Shown here: one piece after another, positions 1,463-10,723 of the stretch
Layout: every line of letters starts with the position of its first letter
Numbering within the stretch: position 1 is the first letter of the stretch
From: a virus
Lineage: Duplodnaviria; Heunggongvirae; Uroviricota; Caudoviricetes
DNA length: 10,723 nucleotides
Strand: one strand, 5' to 3'
Virus record (IMG/VR): IMGVR_UViG_2541047736_000008
Made by a program: the position numbers and the translations under genes
The notes under the pieces: model-generated
Seen by the model: only the letters and a program-made list of their open reading frames with translations
What the model was told of the DNA's origin: nothing
Database searches by the model: none

Positions 1463-4400
1463 ATGGGTAAAGGCAGCAGTAAGGGGCATACCCCGCGCGA
1501 AGCGAAGGACAACCTGAAGTCCACGCAGTTGCTGAGTGTGATCGATGCCATCAGCGAAGGGCCGATTGAAGGTCCGGTGGATGGGTTAAAAAGCGTGCTG
1601 CTGAACAGTACGCCGGTGCTGGACAGTGAGGGGAATACCAACATCTCTGGTGTCACGGTGGTGTTCCGGGCCGGTGAGCAGGAACAGACACCGCCGGAGG
1701 GATTTGAATCCTCCGGATCCGAGACGGTGCTGGGTACGGAAGTGAAATACGACACGCCGATCACCCGGACCATCACGTCGGCAAACATCGACCGTCTGCG
1801 CTTTACCTTCGGTGTGCAGGCACTGGTGGAAACCACCTCAAAGGGGGACCGGAATCCGTCGGAAGTCCGCCTGCTGGTTCAGATACAGCGTAATGGTGGC
1901 TGGGTGACGGAAAAAGACATCACCATTAAGGGCAAAACCACCTCGCAGTATCTGGCCTCGGTGGTGGTGGATAACCTGCCGCCGCGCCCGTTTAATATCC
2001 GGATGCGCAGGATGACGCCGGACAGCACCACAGACCAGCTGCAGAACAAAACGCTCTGGTCGTCATACACCGAAATCATCGATGTGAAACAGTGCTACCC
2101 GAACACGGCACTGGTCGGCGTGCAGGTGGACTCGGAACAGTTCGGCAGCCAGCAGGTGAGCCGTAATTATCATCTTCGCGGGCGCATTCTGCAGGTGCCG
2201 TCGAACTATAACCCGCAGACGCGACAATACAGCGGTATCTGGGACGGAACGTTTAAGCCAGCATACAGCAACAACATGGCCTGGTGTCTGTGGGATATGC
2301 TGACCCATCCGCGCTACGGCATGGGAAAACGTCTTGGTGCGTCGGATGTGGATAAATGGGCGCTGTATGTCATCGGCCAGTACTGCGACCAGTCGGTGCC
2401 GGACGGCTTTGGCGGCACGGAGCCGCGCATCACCTGTAATGCCTGGCTGACCACGCAGCGTAAGGCGTGGGATGTGCTCAGTGATTTCTGCTCGGCGATG
2501 CGCTGTATGCCGGTATGGAACGGGCAGACGCTGACGTTCGTGCAGGACCGACCATCAGATAAGGTGTGGACCTATAACCGCAGTAATGTGGTGATGCCGG
2601 ATGATGGCGCGCCGTTCCGCTACAGCTTCAGCGCCCTGAAGGACCGCCATAATGCCGTTGAGGTGAACTGGATTGACCCGAACAACGGCTGGGAGACGGC
2701 GACAGAGCTTGTTGAAGATACGCAGGCCATTGCCCGTTACGGTCGTAATGTCACGAAGATGGATGCCTTTGGCTGTACCAGCCGGGGGCAGGCACACCGC
2801 GCCGGGCTGTGGCTGATTAAAACGGAACTGCTGGAGACGCAGACCGTGGATTTCAGCGTGGGTGCTGAAGGGCTTCGCCATGTACCGGGCGATGTCATTG
2901 AAATCTGCGATGATGACTATGCCGGTATCAGCACCGGTGGTCGCGTGCTGGCGGTGAACAGCCAGACCCGGACGCTGACGCTCGACCGTGAAATCACGCT
3001 GCCATCCTCCGGTACCACGCTGATAAGCCTGGTTGACGGAAGTGGTAATCCGGTCAGCGTGGAGGTTCAGTCCGTCACCGACGGACTTAAGGTGAAAGTG
3101 AATCGGGTTCCTGACGGCGTTGCAGAATACAGTGTGTGGGGGCTGAAGTTGCCGACGTTGCGTCAGCGCCTGTTCCGCTGTGTGAGTATCCGTGAGAACG
3201 ATGACGGCACGTATGCCATCACTGCCGTGCAGCATGTACCGGAAAAAGAAGCCATCGTGGATAACGGGGCGCACTTTGACGGCGACCAGAGCGGCACGGT
3301 GAATGGTGTCACGCCGCCAGCGGTGCAGCACCTGACCGCCGAAGTCACCGCAGACAGCGGGGAATACCAGGTGCTGGCGCGCTGGGATACGCCGAAGGTG
3401 GTGAAGGGCGTGAGCTTCCTGCTTCGCCTGACCGTGGCAGCGGATGACGGCCGTGAGCGGCTGGTCAGCACGGCCCGGACGACGGAAACCACTTACCGCT
3501 TCACACAACTGGCTCTGGGGAACTACAGGCTGACAGTCCGGGCAGTAAATGCGTGGGGGCAGCAGGGCGATCCGGCGTCGGTATCGTTCCGGATTGCCGC
3601 ACCGGCAGCGCCGTCGCGGATTGAGCTGACGCCGGGCTATTTTCAGATAACCGCCACGCCGCATCTTGCGGTTTATGACCCGACGGTACAGTTTGAGTTC
3701 TGGTTCTCGGAAAAACGGATTGCGGATATCAGGCAGGTTGAAACCAGCGCGCGTTATCTTGGTACGGCACTGTACTGGATAGCCGCCAGTATCAATATCA
3801 AACCGGGCCATGATTATTATTTTTACGTTCGCAGTGTGAACACCGTTGGCAAATCGGCATTCGTGGAGGCTGTCGGTCAGCCGAGTGATGATGCATCAGG
3901 CTATCTGGATTTTTTCAAAGGCGAGATAGGGAAAACCCATCTGGCTCAGGAGCTGTGGACGCAGATTGATAACGGTCAGCTTGCGCCTGACCTGACTGAA
4001 ATCAGGACGTCCATAACGGATGTCAGCAATGAAATAACACAGACCGTCAATAAGAAACTGGAAGACCAGAGTGCAGCGATCCAGCAGATACAGAAGGTTC
4101 AGGTTGATACAAATAATAACCTGAACAGCATGTGGGCAGTGAAGCTGCAGCAGATGCAGGACGGACGCCTTTATATTGCGGGTATCGGTGCCGGTATTGA
4201 GAACACCCCTGACGGCATGCAGAGTCAGGTGCTGCTGGCAGCAGACAGGATTGCGATGATTAATCCTGCGAATGGCAACACAAAGCCGATGTTTGTTGGT
4301 CAGGGCGATCAGATATTCATGAATGAAGTGTTCCTGAAACGCCTGACGGCCCCCACCATTACCAGCGGCGGTAATCCTCCGGCATTTTCCCTGACATCAG

Positions 4401-4960
4401 ACGGGAGACTGACGGCGAAAAATGCGGATATCAGTGGCAGTGTGAATGCGAACTCAGGAACGCTCAACAATGTCACGATTAACCAGAACTGTACGATTAA
4501 GGGCATGCTGGAGGCGACCCAGGTCAGAGGAGATTTCGTTAAAGCTGTATCAAAAGCCTTCCCGAAAAAAGTCGGTACGTGGGGTAACACGGAAACACCA
4601 AACGGTACGGTTACAGTCACCATCAGCGATGATCATAACTTTGACCGCCAGATTATTATTCCGCCCATTATTTTTAACGGTATAGCGTATGACGATCCGG
4701 GGAGCGGAAATAACCCGGGAGGCACGCGATACACGGGTTATGGTTTTGAAGTTCGCAAAAACGGCGTATTAATCGCATCCAGAGAAACTAAAGGGGCCAT
4801 TCCCGGTAGTTACAGTGCAGTTATTGATATGCCTAGTGGTGGTGGTAGCGTCACTCTGGAGTTTAAGATTTTCCAGAAAGGCAATCAGGGGGCAGGCAAT
4901 ATCACCGACTGTACGGTGATTGTGACCAAAAAAGCGGCTTCCGGCATCAGTATTCGTTGA
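1463..4960 (+). CDS. J: Host specificity protein J (central tail fiber / tail tip; receptor-binding C-terminus)
   Basis: 1165-aa ORF. The N-terminus [44 protein letters not shown] and roughly the first 800 residues match lambda J as I recall it, including the fibronectin-III-like region (about nt 3300..3900). A GGAG lies 8 nt upstream of the ATG. The last roughly 350 aa are divergent. Confidence 0.95.
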
Positions 4961-4982: not shown

Positions 4983-5006
4983 GGCGTCAGGAATGACGCC
5001 TTTTTT
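4983..5006 (+). terminator. Rho-independent terminator between J and lom
   Basis: Perfect 7-bp GC-rich stem GGCGTCA (4983..4989) with TGACGCC (4994..5000), GGAA tetraloop, immediately followed by TTTTTT (5001..5006). It starts 23 nt after the J stop codon. Confidence 0.6.
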
Positions 5007-5030
5007 ATTGCAGAAAAGCGAGAGGTAATT

Positions 5031-5630
5031 ATGCGTAAAGTTTGTGCAGCAATTTTGTCCGCAGCCATTTGTCTGGCCGTATCCGGTGCGCCTGCATGGG
5101 CGTCTGAACATCAGTCCACGCTGAGCGCGGGGTATCTTCATGCCTCGACGAACGTCCCCGGCAGTGATGATCTGAACGGGATTAACGTGAAATACCGTTA
5201 TGAGTTTACGGACACACTGGGGCTGGTGACGTCATTCAGCTATGCAGGAGACAAGAATCGCCAGCTGACCCATTACAGCGATACTCGCTGGCATGAAGAT
5301 TCCGTTCGTAACCGCTGGTTCAGCGTAATGGCGGGGCCGTCTGTGCGCGTGAATGAATGGTTCAGCGCGTATGCGATGGCGGGTGTGGCTTACAGCCGTG
5401 TGTCGACTTTCTCCGGGGATTATCTTCGCGTAACTGACAACAAGGGGAAAACGCACGATGTGCTGACCGGAAGTGATGACGGTCGCCACAGCAACACGTC
5501 TCTGGCGTGGGGAGCTGGCGTGCAGTTTAACCCGACCGAATCCGTGGCCATTGATATTGCTTATGAAGGCTCCGGCAGTGGCGACTGGCGCACTGACGGT
5601 TTCATCGTGGGTGTCGGTTATAAGTTCTGA
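5031..5630 (+). CDS. lom: Outer membrane beta-barrel protein Lom (Ail/Lom/OmpX/PagC family); lysogenic-conversion moron
   Basis: 199-aa ORF with a signal-peptide-like N-terminus (MRKVCAAILSAAICLAVSGAPAWA) and a C-terminal aromatic residue (..GVGYKF), typical of small OMP barrels. It is near-identical to lambda Lom as I recall it. AGAGG lies 5 nt upstream of the ATG, and the gene is flanked by intrinsic terminators. Confidence 0.92.
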   Translation: MRKVCAAILSAAICLAVSGAPAWASEHQSTLSAGYLHASTNVPGSDDLNGINVKYRYEFTDTLGLVTSFSYAGDKNRQLTHYSDTRWHEDSVRNRWFSVMAGPSVRVNEWFSAYAMAGVAYSRVSTFSGDYLRVTDNKGKTHDVLTGSDDGRHSNTSLAWGAGVQFNPTESVAIDIAYEGSGSGDWRTDGFIVGVGYKF

Positions 5631-5656: not shown

Positions 5657-5683
5657 AGCCCGCCGGTTCAGGCGGGCTTTTTT
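5657..5683 (+). terminator. Rho-independent terminator downstream of lom
   Basis: 7-bp GC stem GCCCGCC (5658..5664) with GGCGGGC (5671..5677), 6-nt loop, followed by TTTTTT (5678..5683). It lies 28 nt after the lom stop. Confidence 0.65.
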
Positions 5684-5694
5684 GTGGGGTGAAT

Positions 5695-8600
5695 ATGGCA
5701 GTAAAGATTTCAGGTGTACTGAAAGACGGCACAGGAAAACCGGTACAGAACTGCACAATCCAGCTGAAAGCAAAACGTAACAGCACCACGGTGGTGGTGA
5801 ACACGCTGGCCTCAGAAAATCCGGATGAAGCCGGGCGTTACAGCATGGACGTTGAGTACGGTCAGTACAGCGTTATTCTGTTGGTGGAAGGATTCCCGCC
5901 GTCACATGCCGGGACCATCACCGTGTATGAAGATTCCCGACCCGGTACGCTGAATGATTTTCTCGGTGCCATGACGGAGGATGATGCCCGTCCGGAGGCT
6001 CTGCGCCGTTTTGAACTGATGGTGGAAGAGGTGACGCGTAACGCGTCCGCGGTGGCACAGAACACGGCAGCCGCGAAGAAGTCAGCCAGTGATGCCGGCA
6101 CATCTGCCCGTGAGGCGGCAACCCATGCGACTGATGCTGCAGGCTCAGCACGCGCAGCCAGCACGTCAGCCGGACAGGCCGCGTCGTCAGCTCAGTCAGC
6201 GTCTTCCAGCGCAGGAACGGCATCAACAAAGGCCACTGAAGCGGAAAAAAGTGCTGCCGCTGCAGAGTCCTCAAAAAGCGCGGCAGCTACCAGTGCCAGT
6301 GCCGCGAAAACGTCAGAAACGAATGCGGCAGCGTCACAACAATCAGCAGCCACTTCTGCATCCACCGCGACTACGAAAGCGTCAGAAGCTGCCACCTCAG
6401 CCCGGGATGCGTCGGCTTCAAAAGAGGCGGCAAAATCATCAGAAACGAACGCATCCTCGAGCGCCAGTAATGCCGCTTCCTCGGCAACGGCGGCAGGAAA
6501 TTCTGCGAAGGCGGCAAAAACGTCCGAGACGAACGCTAAGTCTTCTGAAACGGCAGCGGGACAGAGTGCCTCAGCTGCGGCAGGCTCAAAAACAGCGGCT
6601 GCGTCGTCTGCCAGTGCAGCGTCAACAAGTGCCGGGCAGGCCTCAGCCAGTGCTAGCGCCGCCGGAAAATCGGCAGAAAGCGCCGCATCGTCCGCTTCAA
6701 CAGCCACAACGAAGGCTGGCGAAGCCACTGAACAGGCCAGTGCAGCAGCGAGGTCTGCTTCCGCAGCGAAGACATCGGAGACGAACGCGAAAGCGTCGGA
6801 GACCAGCGCAGAATCCTCAAAAACGGCTGCCGCATCGTCCGCCAGTTCGGCGGCGTCATCGGCATCATCGGCGTCTGCTTCAAAAGATGAGGCGACCAGA
6901 CAAGCGTCCGCAGCGAAGGGCAGCGCCACGACAGCATCCACGAAGGCGACAGAGGCTGCTGGCAGTGCGACGGCGGCAGCACAGAGCAAAAGTACGGCGG
7001 AATCCGCGGCAACGCGCGCCGAGACAGCGGCAAAACGTGCAGAGGATATTGCATCCGCCGTGGCGCTTGAGGATGCGAGCACGACGAAAAAGGGGATAGT
7101 ACAGCTCAGTAGTGCGACTAATAGCACGTCTGAAACGCTGGCGGCAACGCCAAAGGCAGTAAAAGCAGCCAATGACAATGCTGAGAAACGTCTGCAGAAA
7201 GACCAGAACGGCGCTGATATACCCGATAAGGGACGCTTCCTGAACAACATTAACGCGGTCAGTAAAACAGACTTTGCTGATAAGCGTGGTATGCGTTATG
7301 TGCGGGTTAACGCTCCTGCAGGTGCAACATCTGGAAAATATTACCCTGTTGTTGTTATGCGTTCTGCTGGCTCAGTAAGCGAACTGGCATCAAGGGTCAT
7401 TATCACCACGGCAACGCGAATCGCAGGCGATCCGATGAATAACTGCGAGTTTAACGGATTTGTTATGCCTGGTGGCTGGACTGACAGGGGGCGTTATGCT
7501 TATGGAATGTTCTGGCAATATCAAAACAATGAACGAGCCATCCACTCAATAATGATGAGTAATAAGGGCGATGATTTGCGCTCTGTGTTCTATGTTGATG
7601 GCGCTGCTTTCCCTGTTTTTGCGTTTCTCGAAGATGGCCTGTCAATATCCGCACCTGGTGCTGATCTCGTTGTTAATGATACGACCTATAAGTTTGGGGC
7701 AACAAATCCGGCGACTGAATGTATCGCGGCGGACGTTATCCTTGATTTTAAGAGTGGGCGTGGTTTTTATGAGTCTCATTCGTTAATCGTTAACGATAAC
7801 TTGTCGTGCAAAAAACTTTTTGCCACAGACGAAATTGTAGCGCGTGGTGGTAATCAGATTCGAATGATAGGTGGGGAGTATGGTGCATTATGGCGTAATG
7901 ATGGCGCTAAAACTTACCTGCTGCTTACCAATCAAGGTGATGTTTATGGTGGCTGGAATACATTAAGACCGTTTGTTATTGATAACGCAACCGGCGAACT
8001 GGTTATTGGAACCAAACTGTCTGCAAGTCTGAACGGTAACGCATTGACAGCAACAAAGCTGCAAACGCCAAGACTGGTTTCTGGTGTTGAGTTTGATGGT
8101 TCCAAAGATATTACTTTAACCGCCGCGCATGTGGCTGCTTTTGCCAGAAGGGCAACGGATACATATGCCGATGCGGATGGTGGCGTTCCATGGAATGCCG
8201 AATCAGGCGCTTACAATGTCACCCGCTCTGGCAACAGCTATATTCTGGTTAACTTCTATACCGGAGTCGGAAGTTGCCGGACCTTGCAGATGAAGGCGCA
8301 TTACAGAAATGGTGGTCTGTTCTACCGTTCTTCAAGAGACGGTTATGGTTTTGAGGAAGACTGGGCAGAAGTTTATACCTCGAAAAATCTTCCACCAGAA
8401 AGCTACCCAGTCGGCGCACCAATCCCGTGGCCATCAGATACCGTTCCGTCTGGTTATGCCCTGATGCAGGGGCAGACTTTTGACAAATCTGCCTACCCGA
8501 AACTTGCAGCCGCTTATCCGTCAGGCGTGATCCCTGATATGCGTGGCTGGACGATTAAGGGCAAGCCCGCCAGTGGTCGTGCCGTATTGTCTCAGGAACA

Positions 8601-9093
8601 GGACGGCATAAAATCGCATACCCACAGCGCCAGCGCATCCAGTACTGATTTGGGGACGAAAACCACATCGTCGTTTGATTACGGCACTAAATCCACGAAT
8701 AACACTGGTGCGCATACCCATAGTTTAAGTGGCAGCACGAATGCAGCTGGTAATCACAGCCATAGAGATGGCCGTCGATTTAACCCCAGTGTTTTTAAAG
8801 ATACTTATCAATATGGTTATACAAGCTCAGGTCAAAATACCTGGGGTGTGCAAGGCTCAGTAGGTATGTCTACGGGGGCGTTAGCTAATACCAGTACAGA
8901 TGGTAACCATAGCCACTCACTGTCCGGCACAGCAGCATCTGCAGGTGCACACGCACATACTGTCGGTATTGGTGCACACACGCACTCCGTTGCGATTGGT
9001 TCACATGGACACACCATCACCGTTAACGCTGCTGGTAACGCGGAAAACACCGTCAAAAACATCGCATTTAACTATATTGTGAGGCTTGCATAA
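5695..9093 (+). CDS. stf: Side tail fiber protein Stf, intact and long (about 1133 aa) with mosaic domain structure
   Basis: The N-terminus [37 protein letters not shown] matches lambda Stf. The ORF track starts at GTG 5689; I prefer the ATG at 5695 (GGGG/GTG 6 to 8 nt upstream, same start as lambda). The middle carries a phage tail-fiber repeat motif ([30 protein letters not shown]). The C-terminus holds seven HxH motifs (HTH, HTH, HSH, HSH, HAH, HTH, HGH) as in lambda Stf and the T4 gp37 tip, and ends ...[18 protein letters not shown]. Confidence 0.9.
6060..7030 (+). repeat. Degenerate in-frame tandem repeats (Ala/Ser/Thr-rich low-complexity segment) inside stf
   Basis: Recurring K-[TS]-SETNA units (DNA AAAACGTCAGAAACGAATGCG at about 6307, 6433, 6518 and 6770 with variations) are embedded in about 320 aa of A/S/T-rich sequence. 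This composition creates long spurious ORFs in other frames and on the opposite strand (6089..7099 +, 6192..7250 -). Confidence 0.6.
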
Positions 9094-9677
9094 TGGCATT
9101 CAGAATGAGTGAACAACCACGGACCATAAAAATTTATAATCTGCTGGCCGGAACTAATGAATTTATTGGTGAAGGTGACGCATATATTCCGCCTCATACA
9201 GGTCTGCCAGCAAACAGTACCGATATTGCACCGCCAGATATTCCGGCTGGCTTTGTGGCTGTTTTCAACAGTGATGAGGCATCGTGGCATCTCGTTGAAG
9301 ATCATCGGGGAAAAACCGTCTATGACGTGGCTTCCGGCGACGCGTTATTTATTTCTGAACTTGGCTCGTTACCGGAAAATGTCACCTGGTTATCGCCGGA
9401 AGGAGAATATCAGAAGTGGAACGGCACAGCCTGGGTGAAGGATACGGAAGCAGAAAAACTGTTCCGGATCCGGGAGGCGGAAGAAACAAAAAACAGCCTG
9501 ATGCAGGTAGCCAGTGAGCATATAGCGCCACTTCAGGATGCTGTAGATCTGGAGATCGCAACGGAGGAAGAAACCTCATTGCTGGAAGCCTGGAAAAAAT
9601 ATCGGGTGTTGCTGAACCGTGTTGATACATCAACTGCACCTGATATTGAGTGGCCTACGAACCCTGTCAGGGAGTAA
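9093..9677 (+). CDS. tfa: Tail fiber assembly protein Tfa (chaperone for Stf)
   Basis: 194-aa [82 protein letters not shown]..., near-identical to lambda Tfa as I recall it. Its start overlaps the stf stop (TAATG at 9091..9095), consistent with translational coupling. Confidence 0.92.
9512..9677 (+). repeat. Direct repeat copy A (tfa 3' end), paired with 10561..10723
   Basis: About 165 bp with roughly 90 percent identity, by eye, to 10561..10723 in the same orientation. An example shared core is CACTTCAGGATGCTGTAGATCTGGAGATCGCAACGGAGGAAGAAA. The copies diverge in their last 25 nt or so. Confidence 0.8.
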
Positions 9678-9731: not shown

Positions 9732-10388
9732 CTATTTTTTCCCTGAAGCGGAAAACATTACTACAGTACCTTGAACCTTGGTTTTAACATTCTCGAAATG
9801 CTCTGAGAGTATATGTGTTAAGCCTTCTTCGGAATCTTTTGTGTTTGAAAAGATGCCTTTCTGATTGTAAATGCGCATCAGTTTTTGACCGAAGCTATTG
9901 TGCACAACTCCATCGCCAAGAATTGTGGCTCCGTATAGAGTTCCATCGTCAGTTAAGGCCTGCGCCGCATTGCGTATTACACAGCTTTTTGTAGATATAT
10001 TTCCAGGCAGGCAGTGAAGAAGGTAAAACATGGAAATGGAATCAAATTGACCATGTAACGCCGCGGGATAAGGTTCAAAAACATCATGGCTAATTTTATG
10101 TTTAATTTTTGATTCCCCAGCCCTTGTAGATGCCGCGTTCAGGCTAGCTTCGTTCAAATCCATTAAAGATATCAGACTACTCTCAGGTACGTGAGTAAGG
10201 TAAAACCCAGTTCCAACACCAATATCCAGATGGTTGTTACCTAAATGTTCCAGAAAGTGTGGAAGAAGGTGTTCCTTTGTAGGACATCCCCATGCAAGCC
10301 GATTTGATACTCCCAAAACCCACCAGTCATAAAGCTTTAGGGTAAGTGGTGTGTAAATTTTAGCCCCATCATCTGTGTTTTTTTTCAT
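9732..10388 (-). CDS. Class I (Rossmann-fold) SAM-dependent methyltransferase-like protein; accessory cargo gene, substrate unknown
   Basis: Antisense ORF of 222 aa in the track (9732..10400). I prefer the second in-frame ATG at 10388 (MKKNTDD..., 218 aa) because GGTGA lies 5 nt upstream. It carries a SAM-binding motif I (HLDIGVGTGFY), an acidic residue at the end of the next strand (LISLMDLNE), and motif II/III-like segments (FDSISMFYLLHCLP, LTDDGTLYGATILGDG). There is no DPPY/NPPY motif, so it is not an obvious DNA N6-adenine methyltransferase. The DNA is markedly AT-richer than the tail genes. From memory, its placement between tfa copies resembles the tfaD-ybcY-tfaX arrangement of the E. 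coli K-12 DLP12 prophage; that is unverified. Confidence 0.7.
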   Translation of the reverse strand: MKKNTDDGAKIYTPLTLKLYDWWVLGVSNRLAWGCPTKEHLLPHFLEHLGNNHLDIGVGTGFYLTHVPESSLISLMDLNEASLNAASTRAGESKIKHKISHDVFEPYPAALHGQFDSISMFYLLHCLPGNISTKSCVIRNAAQALTDDGTLYGATILGDGVVHNSFGQKLMRIYNQKGIFSNTKDSEEGLTHILSEHFENVKTKVQGTVVMFSASGKK

Positions 10389-10400
10389 TGATTTCACCAT

Positions 10401-10456: not shown

Positions 10457-10723
10457 ATGCTGCCGCAGCATAGCGATATTGAAATAGCCTGGTATGCTTC
10501 GATACAGCAGGAGCCGAATGGCTGGAAGACCGTCACCACACAGTTCTACATCCAGGAATTCAGTGAGCATATTGTGCCACTTCAGGATGCTGTAGATCTG
10601 GAGATCGCAACGGAGGAAGAAAACTCGTTGCTGGAAGCCTGGAAGAAGTATCGGGTGTTGCTGAACCGTGTTAATACAACAACTGCACCTGATATTGAGT
10701 GGCCGACTTCACCTGCAGAGTAA
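10457..10723 (+). CDS. Short tail-fiber-assembly-family ORF (Tfa C-terminal domain only); possibly a remnant of a second tfa gene
   Basis: 88-aa ORF whose last 53 aa or so ([49 protein letters not shown]...) are about 90 percent identical to the Tfa C-terminus. The N-terminal 35 aa ([35 protein letters not shown]) are unrelated. AAGGGG lies 4 nt upstream of the ATG and an in-frame TAA sits immediately before it. The stop codon is the last three bases of the window. Confidence 0.5.
10561..10723 (+). repeat. Direct repeat copy B (tfa 3' end), paired with 9512..9677
   Basis: Same-orientation copy of the tfa 3' end with roughly 90 percent identity over about 140 nt, then divergence at the extreme 3' end (TACGAACCCTGTCAGGGAGTAA versus GACTTCACCTGCAGAGTAA). 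Confidence 0.8.

Follow-up and report, generated by a model that had tools for sequence, protein, structure and literature searches.

A mosaic J gene joining a 434-type, probably OmpC-targeting tip to a phage-21-type long shaft in a lambda-like phage or prophage

Among the systems closest to the gene described here are the J genes of phages lambda and 434, whose products recognize different receptors. In lambda gpJ, four bottom loops of the receptor-binding domain (RBD) insert into LamB, and binding is relayed upward until the tail tip opens (PMC11101478). The receptor of phage 434 is OmpC (protein Ib), a genetic assignment from the 1970s attributed to Hantke 1978 by a later citing paper (PMC7414163), and lambda binds OmpC instead when its J is replaced by the tail fibre gene of 434, as reviewed in PMC3509688 and PMC11101478. 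Grafts of natural gpJ C-termini that begin at lambda residue 964 are sufficient to switch lambda from LamB to OmpC (Brodel et al. 2024, PMC11338833), and recombination between the J trunk and the specificity region, lambda residues 960-1132, is frequent (Maddamsetti et al. 2018, PMC6646904). Here we describe the J gene of IMG/VR record IMGVR_UViG_2541047736_000008, a tailed-phage sequence (Caudoviricetes) of 10,723 nucleotides (nt) that we refer to as the window. This gene is a mosaic of a trunk shared by lambda, 434 and phage 21, a shaft of the phage 21 type, a conserved lower prism, and an RBD of the 434 type. Taken as a whole, we consider it about 80% probable that the window encodes a mosaic J in which a 434-type, OmpC-targeting tip is carried on a 21-type long shaft.

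The J open reading frame (ORF) spans positions 1463..4960 on the plus strand, comprises 1165 amino acids (aa) and a stop codon according to the ORF list and its translation, and is identified by these and by Pfam as a tip attachment protein or central tail fibre. An earlier sequence-only reading was concerned with its C-terminal part, the 3′ third of an intact J gene in a lambda-like prophage or phage, and quoted a C-terminal peptide that proves to be exactly the one encoded by the ORF. Six J-specific or phage-tail Pfam models match the protein, all above their cut-offs and in the order found in lambda: FNIII-A_GpJ (residues 86-207), Phage-tail_3 (330-498) and Ig_J (610-714), Ig_J_second (716-818), Phage_Tail_Tip (872-1000) and Ig_GpJ_C (1029-1164). 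The surrounding genes are K (114-857, with JAB and NlpC/P60 domains), I (755-1402), lom (5031-5630), stf, encoding an intact side tail fibre of 1134 aa (5689-9093), and tfa (9093-9677), an order, K-I-J-lom-stf-tfa, that is the same in lambda, 434 and PhiR42_1. Domain architecture, gene position and RBD fold all place the window J in the lambda gpJ family, and its product would form the trimeric tail-tip hub together with the central tail fibre. As a separate observation, the K frame is open from an ATG codon for 247 aa that include the JAB/MPN and NlpC/P60 domains, as in the annotations of 434 and PhiR42_1; the lambda reference annotates K as 199 aa only (1277-1876 of the lambda stretch used for comparison).

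Alignment with the lambda reference protein (NC_001416, NP_040600.1; 1132 aa; structures 8IYK, 8XCK and 8XCJ) defines the architecture of the gene. The lambda-like trunk, consisting of the hub domains and two FNIII/Ig domains, covers residues 1-815 (1463..3907, plus strand). Over residues 1-800 it is identical to lambda at 784 of 800 positions (98%) without a gap, as the sequence-only reading had proposed for about the first 800 residues, and over the same range the figures are 99% for 434 J and 97% for phage 21 J; at the nucleotide level, most 100-nt bins of the trunk match lambda at 93-99%, the lowest at 86% and 89%. Identity to lambda collapses at about residue 816, or nt 3908, close to the start at 3900 suggested before any alignment had been made. 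Beyond this point, residues 816-905 are 42% identical to lambda and include 28 additional residues, residues 906-945 are 62% identical, residues 946-1013 recover to 87%, and residues 1014-1165 fall to 38-40% with several indels; in 100-nt bins the corresponding nucleotide values run from 95-99% through 49-61% to 83-89%. This pattern is far beyond chance. The C-terminus is thus clearly different from that of lambda J, as had been claimed, and the identity of 38-40% over the last 152 residues is far from the level of 90% or more over the C-terminal 150 aa that had been named as evidence to the contrary. The further suggestion that the last 350 aa or so diverge progressively is right about divergence and wrong about its form. 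Domain identities, the nucleotide profile and the megablast classes described below show discrete steps, and the divergence is a block mosaic in which two divergent blocks (816-945 and 1014-1165) flank a conserved one (946-1013).

The second divergent block, residues 1014-1165 (4502..4957, plus strand), is the RBD, an Ig-like/beta-sandwich tip that belongs by sequence to the 434 type: 148 of its 152 residues are identical to 434 J and all 152 to mEp460_ev081, as against 38-40% identity to lambda and 43% to phage 21. The domain is likewise 97.0% identical to that of J from "Lambda h434 imm21", and the DNA from nt 4463 onward matches 434 at 99-100%, apart from the bin 4852-4939 (94%). High identity to lambda residues ~985-1132, including the four bottom loops, would be the mark of a LamB-type domain, and here that identity is 38-40%. 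When the last 165 aa were used in a tblastn search, phage J records split into 74 with at least 90% identity and 169 with less than 60%, the former including relatives of phage 434, "Lambda h434 imm21", mEp460 and many long-tailed Shiga toxin (Stx) phages of the Stx1a and Stx2c types. The Pfam family PF12421 matches the domain with an E value of 6.6e-25, and in a search of PDB sequences it aligned end to end with both A8 gpJ713, the best match, and lambda gpJ. The search of the C-terminal region proposed by the sequence-only reading thus places the domain in a 434-type class by tblastn and in the gpJ family by Pfam and PDB.

Structure prediction, also suggested at that stage, agrees with the match to the gpJ family. 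An AlphaFold2 model of residues 1001-1165 is all-beta with a mean pLDDT (predicted local distance difference test) of 75.7, and its top four Foldseek matches are 9wcb, 9wca, 8xck and 8xcj, at probability 1.00, template modelling (TM) scores of 0.70-0.72 and E values of ~1e-13. These entries are A8 gpJ713 with OmpC (9WCB, open), A8 in its closed form (9WCA), and closed and LamB-bound lambda gpJ (8XCK and 8XCJ, respectively). The model thus has the gpJ RBD fold, with TM ~0.7 to both lambda and A8, and indicates that the window RBD keeps the fold of lambda. Its indels relative to lambda, at lambda positions 1011, 1043, 1078 and 1103-1110, lie at or a few residues from all four indel hot spots reported for natural J homologues, lambda 1012, 1048-49, 1077-78 and 1107 (PMC6646904). 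The triggering mechanism is presumably conserved, and specificity should reside in the loops.

Since phage 434 uses OmpC and the RBD is 97% identical to that of 434, OmpC is the likely receptor, and judged from identity to 434 J and the 434 literature it is by far the most likely one. The expectation that the phage uses a receptor other than LamB is therefore supported, and the 434-class RBD narrows it to OmpC. By analogy with the lambda gpJ-LamB and A8 gpJ-OmpC structures, from which the trigger mechanism is inferred, the RBD trimer would most likely dock by way of its four variable bottom loops, which would enter the OmpC porin trimer from its extracellular side; the signal of binding would then travel up the prism and shaft and open the tail tip.

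Several observations weigh against this assignment. No published receptor was found for any phage carrying this precise allele, the phages considered being mEp332, PhiR42_1, PhiR34_1, ev243, Kati, Ayreon, cdtI, phi458 and mEp460, and in a 2026 preprint on receptor prediction GpJ is treated for Drexlerviridae and related phages alone. The record of the h434 hybrid contains 434 DNA not only in J but through lom and stf, so that the J RBD cannot be singled out from this record alone as the cause of OmpC dependence; it is older genetic work, covered in a review (PMC3509688), that credits J. The RBD differs from that of 434 at four positions, N1047D, I1136V, Q1138H and G1143R, three of which lie in the last variable loop, and G1143 of the window falls opposite lambda D1107, on which receptor switching critically depends (PMC6646904). 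The AlphaFold2 model is of a monomer, its first 23 residues are unreliable, and it was built from a shallow alignment of 11 sequences, after removal of the chimeric hits P0055, P0057, P0045 and P0072; the alignment is shallow because the protein-database search with the RBD returned mostly fragmentary ORFs (from Escherichia coli, Escherichia albertii and Shigella) and few distant relatives. No structure of a 434 RBD bound to OmpC was found that would define the contact residues. With regard to the hybrid itself, "Lambda h434 imm21" (OM418627; 4001-9732 of the stretch used for comparison) carries a 434-derived lom, a 437-aa stf and tfa in addition to J, so that "h434" covers more than the J tip, and NleB/NleC-like effector genes lie downstream.

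With four substitutions, one of them aligned to D1107, preference among porin alleles could differ from that of 434, and a stronger form of this argument holds that the 434-class RBD of the window recognizes a different porin or only particular OmpC alleles. Three of the four differences cluster in the last variable loop, use of OmpF by lambda requires changes at 1012 and 1107 (PMC6646904), and the gpJ chimeras A8 and 1A2 accept different OmpC variants (PMC11338833). We nevertheless regard this as unlikely, given that overall identity to the 434 RBD is 97% and that no evidence for another receptor was found. The exact RBD is moreover common to mEp460_ev081, ASU11, Stx2_EH2201 and many E. coli prophages, and because it recurs in several phages and many prophages it is a mainstream allele. 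The window RBD is also distinct from the engineered OmpC binders A8 and 1A2, as three exact 20-mers taken from it are absent from the Brodel supplement and the sequence end printed there before the "GpJ A8" heading, probably that of 1A2, differs from it.

It might also be argued that the window derives from a defective prophage whose J no longer functions in infection, which would make receptor specificity moot. In favour of this, chromosomal prophage regions are the best matches to the window, cryptic prophages are generally known to be frequent in E. coli, and the protein search yielded numerous fragmentary J ORFs. The J ORF of 1165 codons is intact, however, it is flanked by intact K, I, lom, stf (1134 aa) and tfa genes, and J proteins 99% identical to it are carried by isolated phages with listed propagation hosts, PhiR42_1, PhiR34_1, mEp332 and Kati among them, all of which makes inactivity very improbable. 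Least probable of all, to the point of being hard to credit, is that LamB is still the receptor, or that FhuA or BamA takes its place. Each of these proteins is generally known to serve some temperate phages of E. coli, but nothing in the data points to them. An RBD with 38-40% identity to that of lambda and indels in all four loop regions speaks against LamB. HK022 is FhuA-dependent, and its J aligns with that of the window over nothing but the Phage_Tail_Tip region (38% identity across 104 aa) and lacks a homologous RBD, for which reason a tip of the HK022 type was rejected; nor is the HK022 arrangement, in which J is followed by gp25, gp26 and cor, found in the window, where lom comes after J. 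BamA serves short-tailed Stx phages, in which a lambda-type (J-type) tail tip is missing, whereas the window has the lambda tail-tip gene set. Of the three outer-membrane proteins named from general knowledge in the sequence-only reading, OmpC is thus retained on the strength of the 434-type RBD, while FhuA and BamA are set aside by the lack of this RBD in HK022 J and by the presence of a lambda tail module, respectively.

If the RBD argues for 434, the region preceding it argues for a different parent. Residues 816-945 (3908..4297, plus strand) make up a long shaft module of the phage 21 type, comprising the alpha-helical shaft (AHS) and the upper beta-prism (CSF), domain names that follow the lambda gpJ structure paper (PMC11101478). 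This module shares 97-98% of its residues with phage 21 J and 98-100% with Lambda_2E9 J, as opposed to 42% and 62% identity to lambda and 434 for residues 816-905 and 906-945, respectively, and tblastn detects it at 95% identity or more in 65 phage records. According to the list of alignment indels, the 28 residues that lambda and 434 lack lie at 3968..4060 (plus strand), inserted at lambda positions 835 and 838; by their number they may correspond to four heptads. In lambda, the upper helix of the AHS comprises residues 809-840, and residues 841-861 refold into a beta-strand on receptor binding (PMC11101478). Maddamsetti et al. (2018; PMC6646904) described nested indels outside the specificity region, the consequence of which was unsure to the authors, and these are possibly the same as the shaft indels of the window. 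We speculate, without assigning much likelihood to the idea, that the long shaft might determine how far the fibre extends through O-antigen or capsule, or adjust the threshold for triggering. If that is true, the free re-assortment of shafts with unrelated RBD classes would imply that the relay of the signal from receptor to hub is independent of RBD type.

Between the two divergent modules lies the conserved lower prism block, residues 946-1013 (4298..4501, plus strand), which is 87% identical to lambda, 91% to 434 and 90% to phage 21. A megablast search of a phage collection with nt 3908-4960 as the query found both modules, shaft and RBD, in 25 phage records. A second class with the RBD only has matches beginning at query position 375 (nt 4282) and includes 434, mEp460 and Stx1a/Stx2c phages; a third with the shaft only has matches ending at query 585-596 (nt 4492-4503) and includes phage 21, Lambda_2E9 and PPompW phages; and a fourth, with lambda, DE3 and HK629, matches in the conserved block alone (query 375-607, nt 4282-4514). 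All four combinations of shaft and RBD therefore occur in nature within this collection. Because the conserved block is common to all classes, it is the likely zone of crossover between shaft and RBD, for which it would supply the homology. The window provides a clean example of three-way shuffling within a single gene, involving trunk, shaft and RBD.

Base composition does not add to this picture. GC content is ~0.46-0.55 across 3663-4960 and 0.53-0.69 further upstream in the window J, so that the AT-richness ascribed earlier to the C-terminal part is real. The drop begins at about nt 3663, however, ~250 nt before the breakpoint is reached, and the same drop is seen in lambda J (0.48/0.47 versus 0.50/0.46 in 3663-3862); only within the RBD is the window somewhat below lambda, at 0.46-0.49 versus 0.49-0.62. 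Since lambda shares the drop and its onset precedes the breakpoint, it is not a footprint of the exchanged segment, and we rejected it as the mark of a horizontally acquired segment or a sign of foreign origin. Lower GC is a property of this part of J genes generally.

The allele is common. Over 100% of its length, the J gene is 96.5-97.7% identical at the nucleotide level to those of PhiR42_1, ev243, phiSTEC1575-Stx2k, PhiR34_1, Kati and mEp332, PhiR42_1 being closest (97.7%, with a protein 99-100% identical in every segment), and J of Ayreon is more distant (95.5% over the gene). The PhiR phages reportedly originate from work by Brenes and Laub in 2025. Many E. coli chromosomes contain the 3′ 1098 nt, with shaft and RBD, at 100% identity, and 1164 of 5426 complete genomes cover them to at least 80%, the gene being annotated there as gpJ or host specificity protein J; the RBD was also found in entries from E. 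albertii and Shigella sonnei in the protein-database search. For the window overall, the best match among complete genomes, a chromosomal prophage, is 97.3% identical over 98% of the length. The literature or annotated records already contain the J allele and its modules, as well as the recombination pattern and the receptor class, and exchange of the J C-terminus as a means of switching receptors has been documented (Maddamsetti et al. 2018, PMC6646904; Brodel et al. 2024, PMC11338833; the lambda and A8 structures). Our findings thus carry little weight beyond annotation, although a primary receptor that can be predicted as OmpC from sequence may be of use in host-range prediction and in choosing natural gpJ tips for engineered lambda particles.

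A consensus scan detected a terminator-like hairpin followed by a T-run between J and lom (4983..5008, plus strand; GGCGTCA-GGAA-TGACGCC, then TTTTTT) and another after lom (5657-5686), and phage 434 has terminators annotated at places equivalent to both. With such hairpins following both J and lom, lom seems to be set off as a unit of its own between J and stf. Within stf, the part at ~6000-7200 has an AT skew of +0.27 to +0.48 and a GC content of 0.58-0.62, long ORFs overlap it in other frames (6089-7099 on the plus strand and 6192-7250 on the minus strand), and Tandem Repeats Finder found no tandem repeats in stf that would account for the odd composition; this is probably a compositionally biased, shaft-coding part of the side tail fibre. 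Just after tfa, an ORF at 9732-10400 on the minus strand encodes a class I methyltransferase dependent on S-adenosylmethionine (222 aa) and has a low GC content of 0.40-0.43; it looks like a moron, and in PhiR42_1 the corresponding place is occupied by a Pin-type serine recombinase. A final ORF (10457-10723, plus strand) runs off the end of the window and resembles the tail fibre assembly family Caudo_TAP over the C-terminal half of the profile (positions 75-131, E value 3e-24). It could be a remnant, or an alternative tfa, downstream of the methyltransferase.

Compared with described systems, the window J stands nearest to alleles of the PhiR42_1 type, from which it differs by scattered trunk substitutions only, with no functional difference evident. 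Lambda J is of the same length class and shares the Pfam architecture, the 98% identical trunk and the RBD fold, but its shaft is shorter, and its LamB-binding RBD is 38-40% identical with indels at the four specificity loops. J of phage 434 (OL657226, UMO75286.1), the host-range determinant in h434, resembles the window J in its trunk (99%), its RBD (148/152) and the K-I-J-lom-stf order; it differs in having a short, lambda-type shaft that is 44% identical over residues 816-905 and 28 aa shorter, for a total of 1137 aa, and in the four RBD substitutions. The reverse relationship holds for phage 21 J (OL657228, UMO75436.1) and Lambda_2E9 J, which share the long shaft and upper prism (97-100% over 801-945) and the trunk (97-98%), while their RBDs are 43% identical to that of the window. 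Contacts between A8 and OmpC are not transferable to the window residue by residue because RBD identity is only 43-44%; the A8 gpJ chimera (9WCA/9WCB; Brodel et al. 2024) is nonetheless alike in RBD fold (TM ~0.7) and in binding OmpC, as the window RBD probably does, and forms a lineage of its own that lies nearer to phage 21. In phage 21 J (OL657228; 1056-4538 of the stretch used for comparison), the RBD is 82% identical to that of A8 and 43-49% identical to 434-type and lambda RBDs. With one tip lineage so close to A8 and so far from the 434 type, we suggest that OmpC may be targeted by two or more natural J tip lineages that differ widely from each other.

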